Below are positions 6,362 through 37,868 of a stretch of 64,000 bases of DNA, in pieces; within the stretch, counting starts at the first letter, position 1; the number at the start of each line of letters is the position of its first letter. This stretch comes from an uncultured Verrucomicrobiae bacterium. GTDB lineage: Bacteria > Verrucomicrobiota > Verrucomicrobiia > Chthoniobacterales > UBA10450. The notes beneath the pieces are model-generated. The model was not told the DNA's origin, did no database searches, and saw only the letters and a program-made list of their open reading frames with translations. The translations under genes and the position numbers were made by a program. The stretch covers positions 960,001 to 1,024,000 of the forward strand of contig CAVSDR010000003.1 in NCBI GenBank assembly GCA_963726745.1. The letters run 5' to 3'.

Positions 6362-9300
6362 CTAGCGCATCTGGTAAATTTCGACCGAGGAGATGCCCGT
6401 GGTGTTGTTCTTCCCGCGAACGACGGCGCTGTAGCTGCCGGGATCGAGGCTGATCCGGAGCGCGGCTTCCTTGTCGTCCTTTGGCTGCAAGCCGGTGGCT
6501 TCGATGTCGCTGCGCGAGCCGACGCCGGCACCGCTCTGGGTTTTCCAGTTGTCGTTCGAGAAGACCTTCACCGAACCGCGGTAGATATCGAGCGTGGGAT
6601 CGGCCATGGCGTTGCTGATGCCGGCCGCCTTCAGGCTCGGCCCGAGAGCGCGCACGATGACTTCCTGCGCGGTGCCCGGTTCGTTGTTCGGCGCGGAGAC
6701 GATAAAGCCGGCAATGAGCGCGCCGTTATCGCCTTCGTTGACCTTGCCGCGGGTGGAGATGTTAACCAACCGGCTGACGGTGGTCGCACCGAGATCGTAG
6801 ACCTCGACCAGGCCGACGCCGTTGGTGGTGCCGCGCAAGATGGCGGTGTGCGGGCCGGCATTGAGCGTGGTCGACGAGGGCGGCCTCGCGCGTGTCCTCC
6901 GGCTTGAGGCCGTTGGCCGCGAGCGTCTGCTGGTCGCCGGCGGAATTGGTCGTGTAGTTGTCGTTATACCCGATCTGGTTGCCGTTCGAATCCATCAGCT
7001 GGACCGACGGATCCTGGATGGCATTGACCACGCCGCGCTGGGTGAGCGACGGCCCGAGGCCACGGATGATCACCTGCTTGCTGTCGCCTTGGACGATGAA
7101 CCCGGCAATCATGACGCCTTCCGCCTGCTCCACCGGGCCGCGGGTGGAGACGTTTCGCAGCTTCGTGCGCAGATCGAAATTATTGACCGTGACCGTAGCG
7201 CTCGAAGTGCCGCCTAATTCCGCGCCGCTGCTCGGATTCGAGAGGGTGACTTTGAACTGTTTCGAAGGCGTGCCCGCCGGTTGCGCCGTGAGCGGAACGG
7301 TGATGGTCCGCGAGGTTTCACCGGCGGCAAAGGTGAGCCGTCCAGAAGTCGCAGTGTAATCGGTGCCGGCCTGCGCCGTCAGGTCCGAGGTGGCGTAGTC
7401 GACGGTGAAGATGCCGTTCGGATTGCCCAGGCGCGAAAGCGTGACCGTGAGGGTGGCGCTGCCGCTGGAATTGTTCACCGCGTAAGTCGGCGAGCTGAAC
7501 TGGAAGGTGGTGGCGTCGTTATCCGCGATCGTAACGGTGGCCCGGCCGCTGCCGATGCGCGGCGCGCTTCCGTTCGTTGCGCCAAGAGGATTCGACAGGA
7601 CCACGTAGAAGAACTGGCTGCCTTCCTTGGTCGTGTTGTCGACAATCGGGACCGTGATCGTCTGCCGGGTGACGCCGGCGTTGAAGGTCAGGCGGCCGCT
7701 GGTGCGGGTGTATTTTCTGTCCGCCGCGGCGGTGCCGTCGGTGGTCGCGTAGTCGACCGTGACCACTTCGGCGGGATCGCCCACGCGCAGGGCTTCGACG
7801 GTCAAGGTGACCGAGCCAGAGCCTTCATCGATGCTGTAATCCGTGGGGTTGAAGCGGAAGGTCGTGGCATCGTTGTCGAGGATGTTGACCGTGGCCGTGC
7901 TCTGGCCGCCGACGAATCCGGTGCCGGTGGGCGAAGTGAGCGTGACCGTGAAAGTGAGCGTGGGATCGGCGGTGGCGTCGTCGATGATCGGGATCTGGAT
8001 GACCTTCGAGACCTCGCCAACGCCGAAGGTGACGCTCCCGGTAGTGGCCTGGTAATTCACGCCGGCGACGGCGGTGCCGTCGCTGGTGGCGTAGTTTACC
8101 GTGGCGGAAACGCCGAGGCCGCCCGAGCGGGTGACCGTGAGATTGGCGAAGCCGGCGCCTTCATCGACATCGAACGACTTCGCGGAGAAGCCGATCGTGG
8201 CCGAAGGCGAATCGTCATCCGCGATCTCGACCGTGGCGGTGGCAGCGGTGCCCACGGCGACGCCCGGGCCGGGATTGGAGAGCGCAACGAAGAAGTTCTC
8301 GGTGCTCTCGATCAGGTTGTCGTTCAGGATTTGGACGGTGATCGGCTTGCTGGTTTCGCCGGGGCCGAAGGTGAGCGTGCCCGAGGTGCCGACATAGTCA
8401 GCACCTTCCAAAGCGGTGCCGCTGTAGGTGCGATATTGCACGGTGAGCGTGTTGTTCGGATTCCCCTGCCGGCTGGCGACGACCATGACCGTGACCGTTC
8501 CTCCGAGCTCTGAAACGGTGTAATTGGCAGGGCTGAACTGGACGATGCTCTGCACGTCGTCATCGATGATCGTGACAATCGCGCTGCCCGGGGTGCCGAT
8601 GATTGATCCCGGGCTGGGGTCATTCAAGGTCACCCGGAAGGTCTCCGGATCTTCACTGATGGTGTCGTTATTGATCGGGACGAGAATCGTCTTGCTGGTC
8701 TCACCGGGCGCGAAGGTGAGCGTGCCGGAAACCGGCGAGAAATCGAAGCCGGCGTAGGCGCTAATCGGTGTGGCGGTAAAGTTGATCGAGGAAGCGCGGG
8801 AAGCGTCGCCGTTCGGGATCAGGTTGACCGTGAGGACGGCATTCCCGGCGTTTTCGACCACGCTGTAAGTCGCGCTGCTGAACTGGATGACGTTGCCGAG
8901 ATCGTCGTCCGTGATCGTGACCTTGGTGGTCGAGATGCTGCCTAATTGCGCCACGTCGCTGCTCAGGAGCGTGAGGTGAAAGGTGACGTCGCCCTGGATG
9001 AGCGTGTTATCCGGGATCGGGATGATGATCGTTTTCACGTGCTCGTTATCCACCACGACAGTGCGCGGCGGAGTCCCGATCTGCGCGAGCAACGGAGCGA
9101 AACGAATCTCGCCGGAAGTGGGCGTGAAATTGACGCCCGCCTGGGCGGTGTCGCCCGCGCGCAGTTCGGTGGTGTAGCGCGCGATCGTGCCATTCACATC
9201 GAAAGCGCCGAAGCGGACCACGGTAATGGCAATGGCTGCCTGGTCGCCTTCGCGGAAACGATGCGCGGTGGTGAGGAACTGGACCGTGTTCGGGCCGCTA

Positions 9301-32713: not shown

Positions 32714-33838
32714 TTAGCCGAAGCGATGCACTTCCGCGGCGAGCGCAGCCATCGCGTCGTCACTCAGGTTCAAGGGCGGCATCAGCCGCAAAACCTCCGG
32801 GTCGCTGCTGCCACCGACGAGGATGCAGTTCTCTTGCAGGTGTGCCTTCAGCTCCTTTGCCGCCCCCGGGACTTCGAGGCCGAGGAGCAAGCCGCTCCCG
32901 CGCACCGCCTGCACGCAGGAACCGTCGAGCATTTGCCGGAGCTTCCGCTCGCAGGTGAGCGCGCGCTCCATCAATTGCTCCTGCTCGATCACCTCGAGCG
33001 TGGCCAGCAGGGCCGCGCAAGCCAGCGGTGAGCCGCCGAAAGTGCTGCCTAAATCGCCCTGCTTAAGCTGCGCCGCGATTGCTTCCGTCATCAGCAATGC
33101 GCCGATCGGCACACCGGAGGCGAGGCCTTTCGCGCTCGTGATCATGTCCGGCAGCACACCATGTTTGGTCGCTGCATACGGGAAACCCAGGCGGCCCACG
33201 CCGGTCTGGATCTCATCGAAGATCAAGAGCGTGCCGGCTGCACTCGTTAGGCGGCGGAGCTTCTCCAGGAAGCTGGTCGTCGCCGGTCGAATCCCGGACA
33301 TGCTCTGGATCGGCTCGAGCAGAACCGCGGCGACGGTGGCGAAATCGAAGGCGTCGAGCGCAGCTTCGTCGTTCCAGGGCAACTGCGTGCAAGGCGCAAG
33401 CAACGGCGCGTAAGGCGCGGAGATTTTCGGGTCGTCGGTCAGCGAAAGCGGGAGGGTGCCGCGGCCATGCCAGCCGCCGGCGAAGGCGGCGAAGCGATGG
33501 CGCCCGGTGATTTTGACGGCCACCTTGAGCGCGTTCTCGTTCGCTTCGCTGCCGCTATTGCAAAAAAAGACGCTCGCCATGCCGGCGAACCTAACGAGTG
33601 CTTCCGCGGCTTGATTCCGCACCGGCACTTCCGCGGCGGTGCTGTAGAATAAAAGCTCGTGCGCCTGCGCGCTGATCGCGTCGGCTATTTTCGGGTGCGC
33701 GTGCCCGGTGCTGCAGACGCAATGGCCGCCGTAAAAGTCGAAGTAGCGGCGGCCTTCCGCATCGAAAACGCAATCGCCTTTCCCGCGCACGAGCGGAAAC
33801 GGGTAGGGCGGGTAGGTCGGTAGGAGCGCGGCGCTCAA
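32714..33838 (-). CDS. argD: N-acyl-ornithine aminotransferase
   Basis: DFYGGH, CNSGSEANE, HGR, EPIQ, DEIQTG, SAKGLASG, GSTFGG. Confidence 0.9.
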   Translation of the reverse strand: MSAALLPTYPPYPFPLVRGKGDCVFDAEGRRYFDFYGGHCVCSTGHAHPKIADAISAQAHELLFYSTAAEVPVRNQAAEALVRFAGMASVFFCNSGSEANENALKVAVKITGRHRFAAFAGGWHGRGTLPLSLTDDPKISAPYAPLLAPCTQLPWNDEAALDAFDFATVAAVLLEPIQSMSGIRPATTSFLEKLRRLTSAAGTLLIFDEIQTGVGRLGFPYAATKHGVLPDMITSAKGLASGVPIGALLMTEAIAAQLKQGDLGSTFGGSPLACAALLATLEVIEQEQLMERALTCERKLRQMLDGSCVQAVRGSGLLLGLEVPGAAKELKAHLQENCILVGGSSDPEVLRLMPPLNLSDDAMAALAAEVHRFG

Positions 33839-36800
33839 GGATGATATTCCTGGAGGCTCTTCACGGTGATGCCGTGACTTTGCAGGGCGCGAATCCCGAC
33901 CACGCTGGCCTGGGCGGCGCGCATCGTGGTGATGATCGGGATCTTCGCGGTGCGCGCGCGGCTGCGCATGGTCAGCTCGTCTTCGCGCGGAATTTTGCCG
34001 CTCGGGGTGTTGATGATCAGCTGGACGTCGCCGTTCATGATCCGATCGAGCACGTGCGGCCGACCTTCGCGCAGCTTGAAAACGCGCGTCACCGGCAGGC
34101 CGGCTTCGCTCAAGGTATCGGCGGTGCCGCTGGTCGCGATGATCCCGAAGCCTAACGAGAGGTAATCCCGCGCCAGCGGGACGACGCGCTGCTTGTCGGT
34201 GTCTTTCACGCTGATGAAAACGTTGCCTGTTTTCGGGAGCGGCGGCGGCGCGGCCATCTGCGACTTCGCGTAGGCGCGGCCGAGGTCGACGTCGATGCCC
34301 ATGACTTCGCCGGTGGATTTCATCTCCGGGCCGAGGGCGGTGTCGCTCCCGAGATAACGCAGGAACGGGAAGACCGGCTCCTTGACCGAGAAATGTTTCG
34401 GCAAAATCTCTGCGGTAAAACCGAGCGTGCTCAGCTTTTCGCCGGCCATGACTTTGGCCGCGAGCTTGGCCAGCGGAACGCCGATCGCCTTGCTCACGAA
34501 CGGGACCGTGCGCGAGGCGCGCGGGTTGACCTCGAGCACGTAGAGGTCGTCGCCTTTGACGGCGAACTGCACGTTCATCAGGCCGCGCACTTCGAGCTCA
34601 CGCGCCATCGCTTTCGTCGCGGTGGAGATTTCAGCCAGCACTTTGTCGGGGAGCGAAAACGTCGGGATGGCGCAGGCGCTGTCGCCGCTGTGAATGCCGG
34701 CGAGCTGGACGTGTTCCATGATCGCGCCGATGACCGCGGTCTCGCCGTCGGCAATGCAATCCACATCCACCTCGACCGCGTCCTCGAGGAAGCGGTCGAC
34801 CAGAATAGGCCGGTCGGGGCTGACCTCGATCGCCGTCTGCATGTAGCGCGCGAGATCGGTGTCGTTGTAGACCAGCTCCATCGCCCGTCCGCCAAGGACA
34901 AACGATGGCCTAACGAGCACTGGATAGCCGACACGCTGCGGCGATCGCAAGCGCTTCCTCCGCGCTGACTGCGGTGCCGCTGGGCGTTTGCCGCAGGCCG
35001 AGCTTGTCGAGCATGGCGGCGAAAAGCTTGCGGTCTTCCGCTTTCTCGATGCTCTCGGGTTGCGTGCCGAGAATGGGGACGCCGGCCGCGCGCAGGCCGG
35101 CGGCGAGGTTGAGCGGAGTTTGTCCGCCGAACTGCACGATCACGCCCTCGGGTTGTTCCTGGTCGTAAATGTTGAGCACGTCTTCGAGCGTGAGCGGCTC
35201 GAAGTAGAGTTTGTCGCTGGTGTCGTAATCGGTCGAAACGGTCTCGGGATTCGAGTTCACCATGATCGTCTCGAAGCCGAGCTCGCGGAGCGCGAAGGCG
35301 GCGTGCACGCAGCAGTAATCGAACTCGATGCCCTGGCCGACGCGATTCGGGCCGCCGCCGAGGATCATAATCTTCCGGCGATCGCTCCGACGCATCTCGT
35401 TCTCGGTCCCGTAGGTCGAGTAGTAGTAGGGAGTAAAAGCTTCGAATTCCGCCGCGCAGGTGTCGACCAGGCGGTAAGTCGGGATCACGCCTAACGACTT
35501 ACGAAGGTCGCGGATCGCGGACTCCGATGGAATTCCAGGCGACCGCGAGCTGGCGATCGGAGAAGCCGAGCTTCTTCGCGCGGCGGAGGGTGTGGAGGTC
35601 AGGCTTCCAGCCTGACTCGGCGAGCAGGCTTCCAGCCTGCTCATCTCCTAACTGCAAAACGGCCGCATCACGTAGAACAAACGAACCGGACGCCAATCCG
35701 GCCAGATCGGGATTCCGCCGGATATATTCCCGCGAAGCCGCCAGATGCGCTGCGTCGTGGACAATCGTGTCGAAGCTCTCAGCCATCCAAACCGGTCCGG
35801 CATGCTGCAAGTCGCGGTTGAGTGCATTGGCAGTGAAGGATTTCCAGGAATGCAGTATCTCGCCGAGGGTCCGTCCCTCGTTAGGCCGGACGAGAACATG
35901 CACGTGGTTAGGCATGACCACGAAGGCGTCGAGCGCGTAGCGTTCGCCGTCGAAATGCTCGAGCGCTTCCGCGACAACCTTGGCGGCAGCCGGTTGCGCG
36001 AGCAGGCAGCTGCCATGGCCGCGGTCGAGCCATTCCTCGCGGTTTTCTTCGCAGAGGCGGAGGTATGAGCGGGCGGTTTGCCAATCCCATGGCTGAGGGT
36101 GCGCAGCCACGAATCGCTCGGTTTCCTCGCGCCACTGCTCGAGGACTTCTGCCGGGACAGAGTCGGCCAGGCGGAAAGTGACGAAGTAGGTCGCGCCGGG
36201 TTGTTCCCAGTGGGGGAGATGGCGGCGGGTTTGGTGGATTGCGGCTTGTGGGTCCAGGCCCTGGAAGATTGGTGGCTCTTTGCGACGGGCTGGAAGCCCG
36301 TCGGCCGAGTCAGCCTGGAAGCCTGACTTCCGGGCTTGTGGCAGGTCCGCGGCAGCTTCCACGATTTGGCGGATGTTGTGCAGGAACCACGGGTCGATTT
36401 TCGTCAGCTGGTGGATTTCTTCGGTCGTTAGGCCGTCCTGGAAGGCTTGGGCGACGTAGAAAATGCGCTCGGCGTTCGGGACGGCGAGCTTCAGGCGGAG
36501 CGCCTCGGGGTCGACGCGTTTTTCGGCGCCGTCGGCGCAGAGGCCAAAACGTTTGATCTCAAGCGAGCGCAATGCTTTTTGTAGCGCTTCCTTGAAGGTG
36601 CGGCCGATGGCCATGGCTTCGCCGACGCTTTTCATTTGCGTGGTGAGCGTCGCGTCTGCTTGCGGAAATTTTTCGAAGGTGAAGCGCGGGATTTTGACCA
36701 CGCAATAATCGATCGTCGGCTCGAAGCTCGCCGGCGTCTCGCGGGTGATGTCGTTGCGGATTTCGTCGAGGGTGTAGCCGACCGCGAGCTTGGCCGCGAT

Positions 36801-37766
36801 CTTAGCAATCGGGAAACCGGTGGCCTTGGAAGCGAGCGCGCTCGAGCGGGAAACGCGCGGATTCATCTCGATGACGCACATCCGGCCGTTCTGCGGATTG
36901 ACAGCAAATTGAATGTTCGAGCCGCCGGTCTCGACGCCGATCTCGCGGATGACCGCGAAGGAAGCGTCGCGCATGAGCTGGTACTCGCGGTCGCTTAAAG
37001 TCTGCGTGGGCGCGACGGTGATGGAGTCGCCGGTGTGCACGCCCATCGGATCGACGTTCTCGATCGCGCAAATGACCACGCAGTTGTCCGCGCAGTCGCG
37101 CATCACCTCCATCTCAAATTCCTTCCAGCCGACAAGCGATTCCTCGATCAGGACCTCGCTCACGGGGGAAAGCTCGAGGCCGAGGCCGGCGATCTGGTCG
37201 AGTTCCTCGCGGTTGTAGGCAATGCCGCCGCCGCGTCCGCCGAGGGTGAAGGCCGGGCGGATGATGAGCGGGAAGGTGCCGATGTTGTCGGCAATTGTCG
37301 AGAGCTCGCCTAACGAGTGCGCGACTCCGGAGCGCGGGACGTCGAGTCCGATGCGGAGCATGGCTTCCTTGAAGAGCTGGCGATCTTCGCCCTTGGCGAT
37401 GGCCTGGGCATTCGCGCCGATGAGCTTCACGCCGTGGCGCGCGAGCGCGCCGTTGCGATTCAATTCCATCGCGGCATTGAGCGCGGTCTGGCCACCCATC
37501 GTCGGGAGGATCGCGTCCGGCTTCTCGCGTTCCATGATCGCCTCGATCACCTCGGGAGTGATTGGCTCGATGTAGGTCCGGTCGGCAAATTCCGGATCGG
37601 TCATGATCGTGGCCGGGTTCGAATTAACCAGCACCACCTGGTAGCCCTCCTCGCGCAACGCCTTGCAGGCTTGCACCCCGGAATAATCGAACTCGCACCC
37701 TTGGCCAATGACGATCGGGCCGGAACCGATAAGGAGGATTTTCTTGAGCTCGTTGTTGCGCGGCAT
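33835..37766 (-). CDS. carB: Carbamoyl-phosphate synthase large subunit with an in-frame RAYT insertion (apparent +1 frameshifts near 35527 and 34938)
   Basis: [59 protein letters not shown] domain INTP; start ATG 37766. Confidence 0.96.
35594..35642 (+). repeat. REP-like double-hairpin repeat, distal end of the RAYT cassette
   Basis: GGAG GTCAGGCT-TCC-AGCCTGAC TCGGC GAGCAGGCT-TCC-AGCCTGCTC; GTGG at 35592-35595. Confidence 0.9.
36283..36331 (-). repeat. REP-like double-hairpin repeat, proximal end of the RAYT cassette (inverted copy)
   Basis: Minus strand GGAA GTCAGGCT-TCC-AGGCTGAC TCGGC CGACGGGCT-TCC-AGCCCGTCG. Confidence 0.9.
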
Positions 37767-37818
37767 CGGCGCGCGAACATTAGACGAAAAGGTTGGCGCG
37801 TCACGAAGGAATGCTTCG

Positions 37819-37868
37819 CTGGGCGAGATGCCCAGGAGGCCCACAGGCGGAACGCCTGGGCGACACGG
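37819..37868 (-). repeat. Degenerate REP-like double hairpin upstream of carB
   Basis: Plus strand CTGGGC-GAGAT-GCCCAG, then CAGGCG-GAA-CGCCTG. Confidence 0.5.

Follow-up and report, generated by a model that had tools for sequence, protein, structure and literature searches.

Transposases of the REP-associated tyrosine type (RAYTs), named after the repetitive extragenic palindromes (REPs), are described in the available text of two reports (10.1101/119735, PMC8266576) as single-copy, vertically inherited, domesticated transposases, and the second of these (PMC8266576), in the same available text, treats the cutting and rejoining of single strands at hairpins by HUH-Y1 enzymes as established for IS200/IS605 and for TnpA-REP. 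The accessible part of Quentin et al. 2018 (PMC6006769) lists the motifs NHVH, W(Q/M) and YIxxNP for subclasses 2.4 and 2.7, places a GT[AG]G guide tetranucleotide at the foot of the hairpin in RAYT/REP systems, and mentions REP insertions that keep the frame of a gene as already known (Di Nocera et al. 2013, PMC3733652, as cited there). How RAYTs and REPs spread is an open question in the field. Here we analyse a stretch of 64,000 nucleotides, below called the window, from an uncultured Verrucomicrobiae bacterium (assembly GCA_963726745.1, contig CAVSDR010000003.1, positions 960,001 to 1,024,000), in which a RAYT-like cassette lies in frame inside carB, the essential gene for the large subunit of carbamoyl phosphate synthase. 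We propose, with a probability of roughly 0.7, that this cassette is a REPtron with neither a start nor a stop codon of its own, which lies in frame within a variable loop of surface type in CarB, is translated as a chimera, is specific for this site and homes to it without splicing. In the literature that we searched, whose coverage stops short of subscription journals, we found no account of a RAYT gene lying in frame within a host gene.

As far as the available descriptions of REPtrons go (E. coli TnpA-REP, structure 4ER8, and the subclasses 2.4 and 2.7), the carB cassette has in common with them the HUH and tyrosine motifs, the predicted fold, the inverted pairs of hairpins and, in the genome studied here, the single copy. 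Unlike them, it lacks its own start and stop, lies in frame in an essential gene, goes with a very low REP copy number, and belongs to a set of several cassette types that replace each other at one site.

With inteins that contain homing endonucleases the cassette shares a fixed in-frame site in an essential protein, a patchy distribution with empty alleles, an internal nuclease, an evolution faster than that of the host gene, and the occurrence of its kind in several host genes, including tRNA synthetases, a helicase and a chaperone. It differs from them in that neither a Hint domain nor splicing residues were found, so that the mature protein probably retains the insert; in that its predicted nuclease belongs to the HUH-Y1 enzymes, which act on single strands, and has DNA hairpins at the ends, instead of being of the LAGLIDADG or HNH kind; and in that it sits in a variable loop and not in a catalytic motif. 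Rickettsia palindromic elements are in-frame palindromic repeats in genes, and they, as well as REP insertions, resemble the cassette in having hairpin repeats translated as extra residues of a loop. Read-through repeats without a RAYT also occur here, in thiC of the window's genome and at a second place of carB in a relative (L003). These known elements are short and non-autonomous, while the carB cassette looks like a whole autonomous unit with the nuclease gene included. IS200/IS605 elements have likewise a Y1 HUH transposase and subterminal hairpins, and IStrons are known to avoid killing the host gene which they interrupt; in contrast to both, the carB cassette has no TnpB and no group I intron, and its frame would be kept by translation and not by RNA splicing.

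In the window carB spans 37766..33835 on the minus strand, from MPRNNELKK at the N-terminus to QEYHP and the stop codon, and a minus-strand open reading frame (ORF) of 781 aa, 37844..35499, runs from CarB into the insert and back into CarB free of stops, with RRHLPHW, YFVTFRL, MPNHVHVLV and EYIRRNP following one another within the insert. The first-pass annotation, made from the letters of this DNA, had described a RAYT cassette of 246 stop-free codons in the carB frame, which this ORF confirms; the length that it gave, 738 nt, stands as well, while its boundaries (36331..35594) lie one base off the codon register, which is 36332..35595. We set the boundaries against empty alleles, with a precision of a few bases. 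The parts of the cassette are the following.

35595..36332, minus strand: whole cassette, 738 nt, 246 codons in the carB frame, own start and stop codons absent (comparison with empty alleles)
35679..36230, minus strand: RAYT/TnpA-REP-like HUH-Y1 nuclease core, TRRHLPHW ... PNHVHVLV ... EYIRRNP (Pfam, NCBIfam, profile match to 4ER8, fold, conservation, ratio of nonsynonymous to synonymous substitution rates, dN/dS)
36283..36332, minus strand: left REP doublet, foot CGGAA with HP1 and HP2, read as linker (hairpins from sequence scan; alignment A1)
36327..36309, minus strand: HP1, 7-bp stem, loop TTCCA, GTCAGGC-TTCCA-GGCTGAC, one G.G mispair
36303..36283, minus strand: HP2, 8-bp stem, loop TTCCA
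35595..35642, minus strand: right REP doublet, HP3 and HP4, read as linker (alignment A2)
35642..35622, minus strand: HP3, 8-bp stem, loop TGGAA
35616..35598, minus strand: HP4, 7-bp stem, loop TGGAA

The residues just before the insert align with residues 458-471 of E. coli CarB in structure 1BXR, which puts the insertion about 8 residues further on, in the oligomerisation region, as had been assumed from the letters; we take the limits of the E. coli oligomerisation domain to be 404-553. The loop in question varies in length in relatives that have no insert, from 29 to 79 aa between two anchor motifs. The junctions of the window copy read ...PQA/RKSG and ...KPDL/HTL and vary among copies. 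The GC content at third codon positions (GC3) is 0.70 in the insert and 0.81-0.84 in carB. An internal start codon, from which a separate RAYT protein might be made, was considered and given up: across the aligned copies no Met column is conserved between the left hairpins and the nuclease core, Met codons being the start codons that were checked.

The nature of the insert is indicated by several comparisons. It matches the Pfam family Y1_Tnp (PF01797) with 25.2 bits at a cut-off of 23, and the NCBIfam model REP_Tyr_transpos (NF047646), i.e. REP-associated tyrosine transposase, with 64.2 bits (E 1.2e-17) at an equivalog cut-off of 80, in agreement with the RAYT assignment made earlier from motifs. 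A search of the sequences of the Protein Data Bank with the single insert sequence gave nothing relevant, while a profile of 46 homologues (A3) matched E. coli TnpA-REP, 4ER8, with E 8.5e-6, followed by IS200/IS605 transposases; in this alignment PNHVH falls on PEHMH and YIxxNP on YIYINP. The AlphaFold model of the insert has a mean pLDDT (predicted local confidence) of 82.1, its first 38 residues, which correspond to the left linker and a spacer, being below 50, and the best Foldseek match of this model is again 4er8_A (E 3.9e-5, TM-score 0.54 on the target), then the TnpA proteins of IS608 and ISDra2. The model also predicts a helical segment (insert residues 60-125, approximately) that is additional to the classical core and separates it from the first strand. 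Both histidines of the HUH motif, H142 and H144, are invariant in the 46 homologues, and Y202 of EYIRRNP is nearly so. By these profiles and by its predicted fold, the insert encodes a nuclease domain of the RAYT/TnpA-REP HUH-tyrosine type.

The ends of the cassette are no less informative. The first-pass annotation saw in the two linkers the translated terminal repeats of an element, and according to our analysis they are indeed inverted doublets of predicted REP hairpins, the right pair being the inverted complement of the left one; two such doublets around a RAYT gene are, at the level of sequence, the anatomy of a REPtron. In the alignment of left ends (A1, 22 type-A copies; the types are introduced below) 95.2% of cells are paired, and in that of right ends (A2, 19 type-A copies) 91.6%, against 9.5-44% in controls where the pattern was slid along the alignments. 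In the type-A alignments the outer hairpins are nearly invariant, and in each of the inner ones, HP2 and HP3, five pairs have changed on both sides; the cells with such double changes number 18 (HP2) and 17 (HP3) versus 4.5 and 6.5 in shuffled alignments, none of 500 shuffles reaching as high. In three loci (L103, L106, L110) one and the same altered loop is found in the outer hairpins of both sides, in inverted-complement form. Since linker peptides are not expected to conserve pairing of DNA, these hairpins appear to matter as nucleic acid. The consensus of the hairpin foot is CGGAAGTCAGGC; a clear GTAG or GTGG at the foot is absent, and GTGG occurs two nucleotides outside the right hairpin in the window copy only. 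The type of REP goes with the clade of RAYT.

We show that the same arrangement exists at the same place of carB in other genomes. Four relatives with CarB identity of 87-90% (L003, L004, L008, L013) have an insert there, 53-57% identical to ours, in open frames of carB from 1247 aa (cut by the contig end) to 1386 aa, and three others at 87-88% identity (L002, L005, L006) are without it. Matches to the insert at E<=1e-5 were obtained in 251 of 301 genomes of the family, and among the matches listed there are stop-free frames of 1311-1480 aa in 55 family genomes; these tallies over 301 genomes, the genus tally and the hairpin counts given below include genomes flagged as unpublished, on which no single claim depends. 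Of 34 loci that were inspected, 28 have both CarB anchors recognisable; the stretch from one anchor to the other measures 273-336 aa there and about 30 aa in empty alleles. In every intact copy examined the cassette and its linkers are stop-free in the carB frame. Loci in which one or both anchors are missing because of contig ends or frame breaks (L084, L093, L094, L098, L099 and L104 from the series L082-L110, and the genus loci L154, L155 and L156) were kept outside the alignments and trees. In the second ATP-grasp half of carB in L003, at about 7000-7120, a further in-frame insert was noticed besides the RAYT cassette, which consists of REP sequence only (RRIGFQPVSAHEHPARPSARRHAGSLPAGSGKMPDL).

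Within the window's own genus a CarB query found a match in 26 of 34 genomes, and the site is occupied in 11 of them (including the window's genome, G000), empty in 12 and unclassified in 3. Each of the ten occupied genus-mates has one CarB match, read through in frame; because these ten other genomes carry the cassette in frame at the same site, the insert is not an artefact. Empty alleles in close relatives, to which one would look for the exact junction, thus exist, a good example being the allele of G126, 92% identical over the 223-aa query. Two carB frames of 1446 aa from two contigs of one genome (L144 and L157, G099) have an empty site, and their extra residues, about 370, must lie elsewhere in the gene. 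The searches indicate that the phenomenon is much wider than the window. A search of a protein collection with the insert brought up 2130 long proteins at E<=1e-10; CarB Pfam domains are present in 118 of the 120 that were listed, and the automatic annotation of JGI calls these proteins 'carbamoylphosphate synthase large subunit/REP element-mobilizing transposase RayT'. The arrangement is therefore already visible in databases. For annotation it means that such fused 'CarB/RayT' calls are real genes and not errors, and that surveys which drop RAYT proteins as 'too long' miss this class.

Purifying selection acts on the nuclease core. Over its 184 codons dN/dS is 0.048-0.159 in nine of the twelve pairs, those with finite dS (three being saturated), and in the CarB flanks upstream it is 0.018-0.075. 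Among the 28 carB copies in the alignment none has lost the HUH motif; one lacks the tyrosine of YIxxNP, and one the Arg of IVRD, the latter being the window copy, which has His in its place (IVHD). The earlier description of a diverged motif is in this way partly right: the change from Arg to His is private to the window copy (1/28), but WM in place of WQ is found in most of the 28 copies and is a trait of the family. The suggestion that the nuclease is decaying finds no support when applied to the family, because the family is under purifying selection. Taken with the pairing of the hairpins, the substitution pattern indicates that selection acts on the enzyme and on the hairpin ends as such. 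The single copy without the tyrosine is L091 (G196), where Asn is found instead (RDNIARNP) in an otherwise intact cassette; it may be a dead nuclease held in place only by the frame of carB.

Four types of REP and cassette, A to D, told apart by the linkers which the REPs encode, occupy this one site of carB. The linkers of type C are STAVPAVRPAGVSPA and AGETPAGRTAGTAV, those of type D are GILPV or GSLPV on the left and GKMPV on the right, and GKMPVFR is found among the linkers of types A and B. In the tree inferred from CarB flanks (50 rows, 45 of them distinct; the window copy was left out, its downstream flank being cut by a frame break) presence and absence of the cassette require at least 11 changes, 7 of which are forced by well-supported branches. 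In the RAYT tree, from which L136, L150, L116, L117, L118, L128 and L130 are missing because the core was extracted by motifs, the type-A RAYTs form one clade with support 100/96, and a single clade of their hosts is rejected by the CarB flanks of the 28 occupied rows (log-likelihood difference 350.6; p of the approximately unbiased test, p-AU, 4.5e-9). Right up to the junction the flanks go by kinship of the hosts. Over 150 nt on each side, identity is 0.89 and 0.83 between L004, of type D, and L108, of type A, and 0.66-0.68 between hosts that both have type D. We considered exchange of cassettes by homologous recombination through the flanks of carB and are not in favour of it, as the flanks of hosts with the same type show no excess of similarity. 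Within type A the subclades of RAYTs largely match those of hosts. Together these data suggest a site-specific turnover of cassettes between lineages: at one site they would have been gained, lost and replaced time and again, and the adjoining carB sequence would not have been transferred with them. In two loci, L082 and L088, stretches like the left end of type C (RNTAIPGARPAD and RSTADAPVQPADIS) stand just upstream of a type-A cassette, which gives the impression that this cassette inserted next to what was left of another. Some empty alleles, e.g. L153, contain short extra stretches, which may be scars.

From these observations it would be logical to suggest the following way of life. The host gene carB would supply both transcription and translation of the cassette, and the product is most likely a CarB chimera, in which the nuclease is an inserted domain on flexible linkers encoded by the REPs. 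By analogy with TnpA-REP and IS200/IS605, the nuclease may act on its own flanking hairpins in single-stranded DNA, and the cassette may move by single-strand cutting and rejoining at these hairpins; such activity would shift hairpin doublets and, more rarely, the whole cassette. The element would be kept for two reasons, namely that any break of the frame destroys the only carB, and that nuclease and hairpins are under their own selection; as most deletions or disruptions in an essential gene are lethal, only precise or in-frame losses would survive. The idea of the first-pass annotation that a tolerant loop of an essential protein serves as a safe haven is well in line with this, the same in-frame arrangement being kept in the only detected carB of many relatives. 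The family, which is specific for the carB site, is gained, lost and swapped between host lineages in a kind of intein-like homing that would use HUH chemistry, and sister lineages occupy other housekeeping genes.

The carB gene of the window has a peculiarity, overlooked in the first reading of this DNA, that has to be dealt with before the alternatives. Downstream of the insert the frame changes twice, near 35537 and near 34936, and the assembled gene consists of three ORFs.

36333..37766, minus strand: N-terminal part of carB, first ATP-grasp half and start of the oligomerisation domain (ORF; Pfam CPSase_L_D1/D2/D3; 1BXR alignment)
35538..35594, minus strand: resumption of carB in the same frame (ORF, comparison with relatives)
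35535..35538, minus strand: frame break 1 (...LAVA / next frame), near 35537, probably a one-base assembly error
34937..35536, minus strand: middle part of carB in the second frame (GIPSES ... EEALAIAA), pre-ATP-grasp of the second half (ORF, Pfam)
34934..34937, minus strand: frame break 2 (...ALAIAA / next frame), near 34936, one surplus base relative to relatives
33835..34935, minus strand: C-terminal part of carB in the third frame, second ATP-grasp and MGS-like domain (ORF, Pfam)

We compared G000, an assembly of 7 contigs, with 152 ORFs of at least 300 aa taken from 280 kb of a genome of the same genus (G039); 76 of them have an orthologue at >=60% identity and >=70% coverage, and for 17 of these 76 long genes the reading in G000 is broken into two or more frames. 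As genes of this genome are so often split alike, both breaks in carB are most likely indels of the assembly, rather than signs of gene decay. The thiC gene of G000 is likewise frame-split, and the assembly seems to contain roughly one indel in every few kb of coding sequence.

If the breaks were nonetheless genuine, carB could be a very recent pseudogene. One may go further and suppose that nothing here functions, the gene being dead together with its insertion, or the insert having been joined to it by a chimeric assembly, a worry already raised when the cassette was first noticed. The two breaks, the private changes in the conserved Arg and in one hairpin, and the failure of read contigs to span the critical places all speak in this direction. 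We hardly believe in such an explanation, since dozens of assemblies made independently have an insert with intact frames at this site, the split genes of G000 point to assembly indels, all three carB pieces are open apart from the breaks and align over the full length with CarB of relatives, and no second carB locus was found in G000, where an intact second copy would have undermined the case. Among sequencing runs, run X1 yielded a contig that covers 267 nt of the insert (35920-36186) and differs from it at 2 places. The best share of matching words in this search was 0.13, and RNA runs were not among the matches.

It was supposed from the beginning that the insert might be removed at the level of DNA or RNA. 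Removal before CarB matures could take place by precise excision of DNA in a part of the population, by splicing of RNA, or by splicing or cleavage of the protein. Precise excision is chemically plausible, since HUH-Y1 enzymes can cut and rejoin single-stranded DNA at hairpins (PMC8266576, available text), and empty alleles with an intact loop do exist. We consider removal very improbable: on the 781-aa ORF no Hint or intein family was found at E<=0.01, conserved Cys, Ser or Thr are absent at the junctions among aligned carB copies, and Rfam gave no match, introns and ribozymes included, at E<=1 within 35300-36600, which agrees with the early description of the element as intein-like without intein motifs. 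The stop-free state of linkers and cassette in every intact copy would also be needless if the insert were spliced from RNA. A different possibility is domestication, in which the RAYT would be a fixed, vertically inherited and immobile part of CarB or of the cell that serves the host, e.g. as a tethered housekeeping nuclease for REPs or REPINs. Strong purifying selection on the core, the presence of only one RAYT in G000, the extensive match of type-A subclades with host subclades and the general description of RAYTs as single-copy and vertically inherited (10.1101/119735 and PMC8266576, in their available parts) speak for it. We regard it as unlikely, because about half of the genus is without the insert, cassette types are swapped across host lineages, and the GC3 is below that of carB; nor does a role specific for CarB fit the finding of such domains in nine or more host proteins that are unrelated to each other.

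The reading of the locus as a nested, site-specific and translated REPtron has itself several points against it. The score for NF047646 is under the equivalog cut-off and that for PF01797 only just above its own; the G.G mispair of HP1 is private to the window copy (1/22), and together with the private change from Arg to His it could mean that this copy is decaying, or could reflect assembly errors. The contigs from runs X1, X21, X22 and X2 are short, come from soil metagenomes with many relatives of carB, and bridge neither the junctions nor the frame breaks. The occupied loci L082-L110 were picked as best matches to the insert and are a non-random sample, and the groups in the approximately unbiased test were chosen after the first tree had been viewed. 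Swapping of cassettes could also be an old allelic polymorphism with short tracts of gene conversion instead of homing. Finally, REP copies are low, 0-16 per genome in 301 genomes, unlike in classical REP-RAYT systems, and because of this low number an ongoing amplification of REPs is weakened as a part of the picture.

The domain is not confined to CarB. The first-pass annotation had advised a look into other housekeeping genes, and related domains were found in frame in ValS (10 loci), at two sites of PurL (4 loci), in ClpB (2) and in a menaquinone-biosynthesis protein of the MqnA type (2); three loci in other genomes hold a related gene that stands alone, 208-223 aa long. When five genomes were searched with a profile, 58 matches came out at E<=1e-8, 19 of them in large host frames; the 11 of these frames that were scanned with Pfam belong to RecG (five), AlaRS (four), ThrRS (one) and MetH (one). 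In the RAYT tree the copies cluster by host gene, with MqnA nested among the carB types B-D and PurL among ValS, and a single clade of all carB copies is not rejected (p-AU 0.24). A more general proposal may then be put forward, to which we give somewhat less than an even chance: HUH-tyrosine cassettes without expression signals of their own would live as translated, unspliced inserts in loops of CarB, ValS, PurL, ClpB, MqnA, RecG, AlaRS, ThrRS and MetH, their sub-lineages homing each to its own site and being swapped between species, and would make up a bacterial analogue of inteins and homing endonuclease genes that relies on hairpins of single-stranded DNA, with the CarB-nuclease chimera as the active enzyme.

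A RAYT with intact ends sits here at a place where its loss or silencing would damage an essential gene. If the chimera is made and active, it would represent a new mode of persistence for a transposable element, in which nesting takes place at the level of translation without splicing. It would also provide a natural set of permissive sites for insertion of domains into core enzymes, and a defined donor and target, i.e. one carB loop with occupied and empty alleles about 90% identical, for studies of REPtron movement.

Two unusual proteins were met in these searches. One (P0091) is an AlaRS-like protein of Planctomycetota with two in-frame RAYT domains, and the other (P0002) is a 661-aa ORF where two RAYT domains are linked by a long array of translated REP units.

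In G000 itself the carB copy is the only RAYT, no other being found, the profile search included. Hairpins of type A occur at two further loci of this genome, which makes three loci with four hairpin matches in all. Across genomes such a hairpin is present in 22 of 22 genomes that have a type-A cassette, with 1-16 matches (up to two of which belong to the cassette itself), and it is absent in 10 of the 12 genus genomes with an empty site, the control pattern giving 0 everywhere; this co-occurrence is descriptive only, as kin are not independent. One of the two further loci is thiC, where a left-end doublet of type A lies in frame at C2:220129-220174, within a longer in-frame stretch (C2:220120-220245) that includes two hairpins of other REP types and has a change of frame just downstream. 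At the other locus, C6:29434-29570, located after the stop of an ORF, inverted doublets of the left and right types form a REPIN-like unit with no RAYT between them, which by its sequence is a gene-less derivative of the cassette ends.

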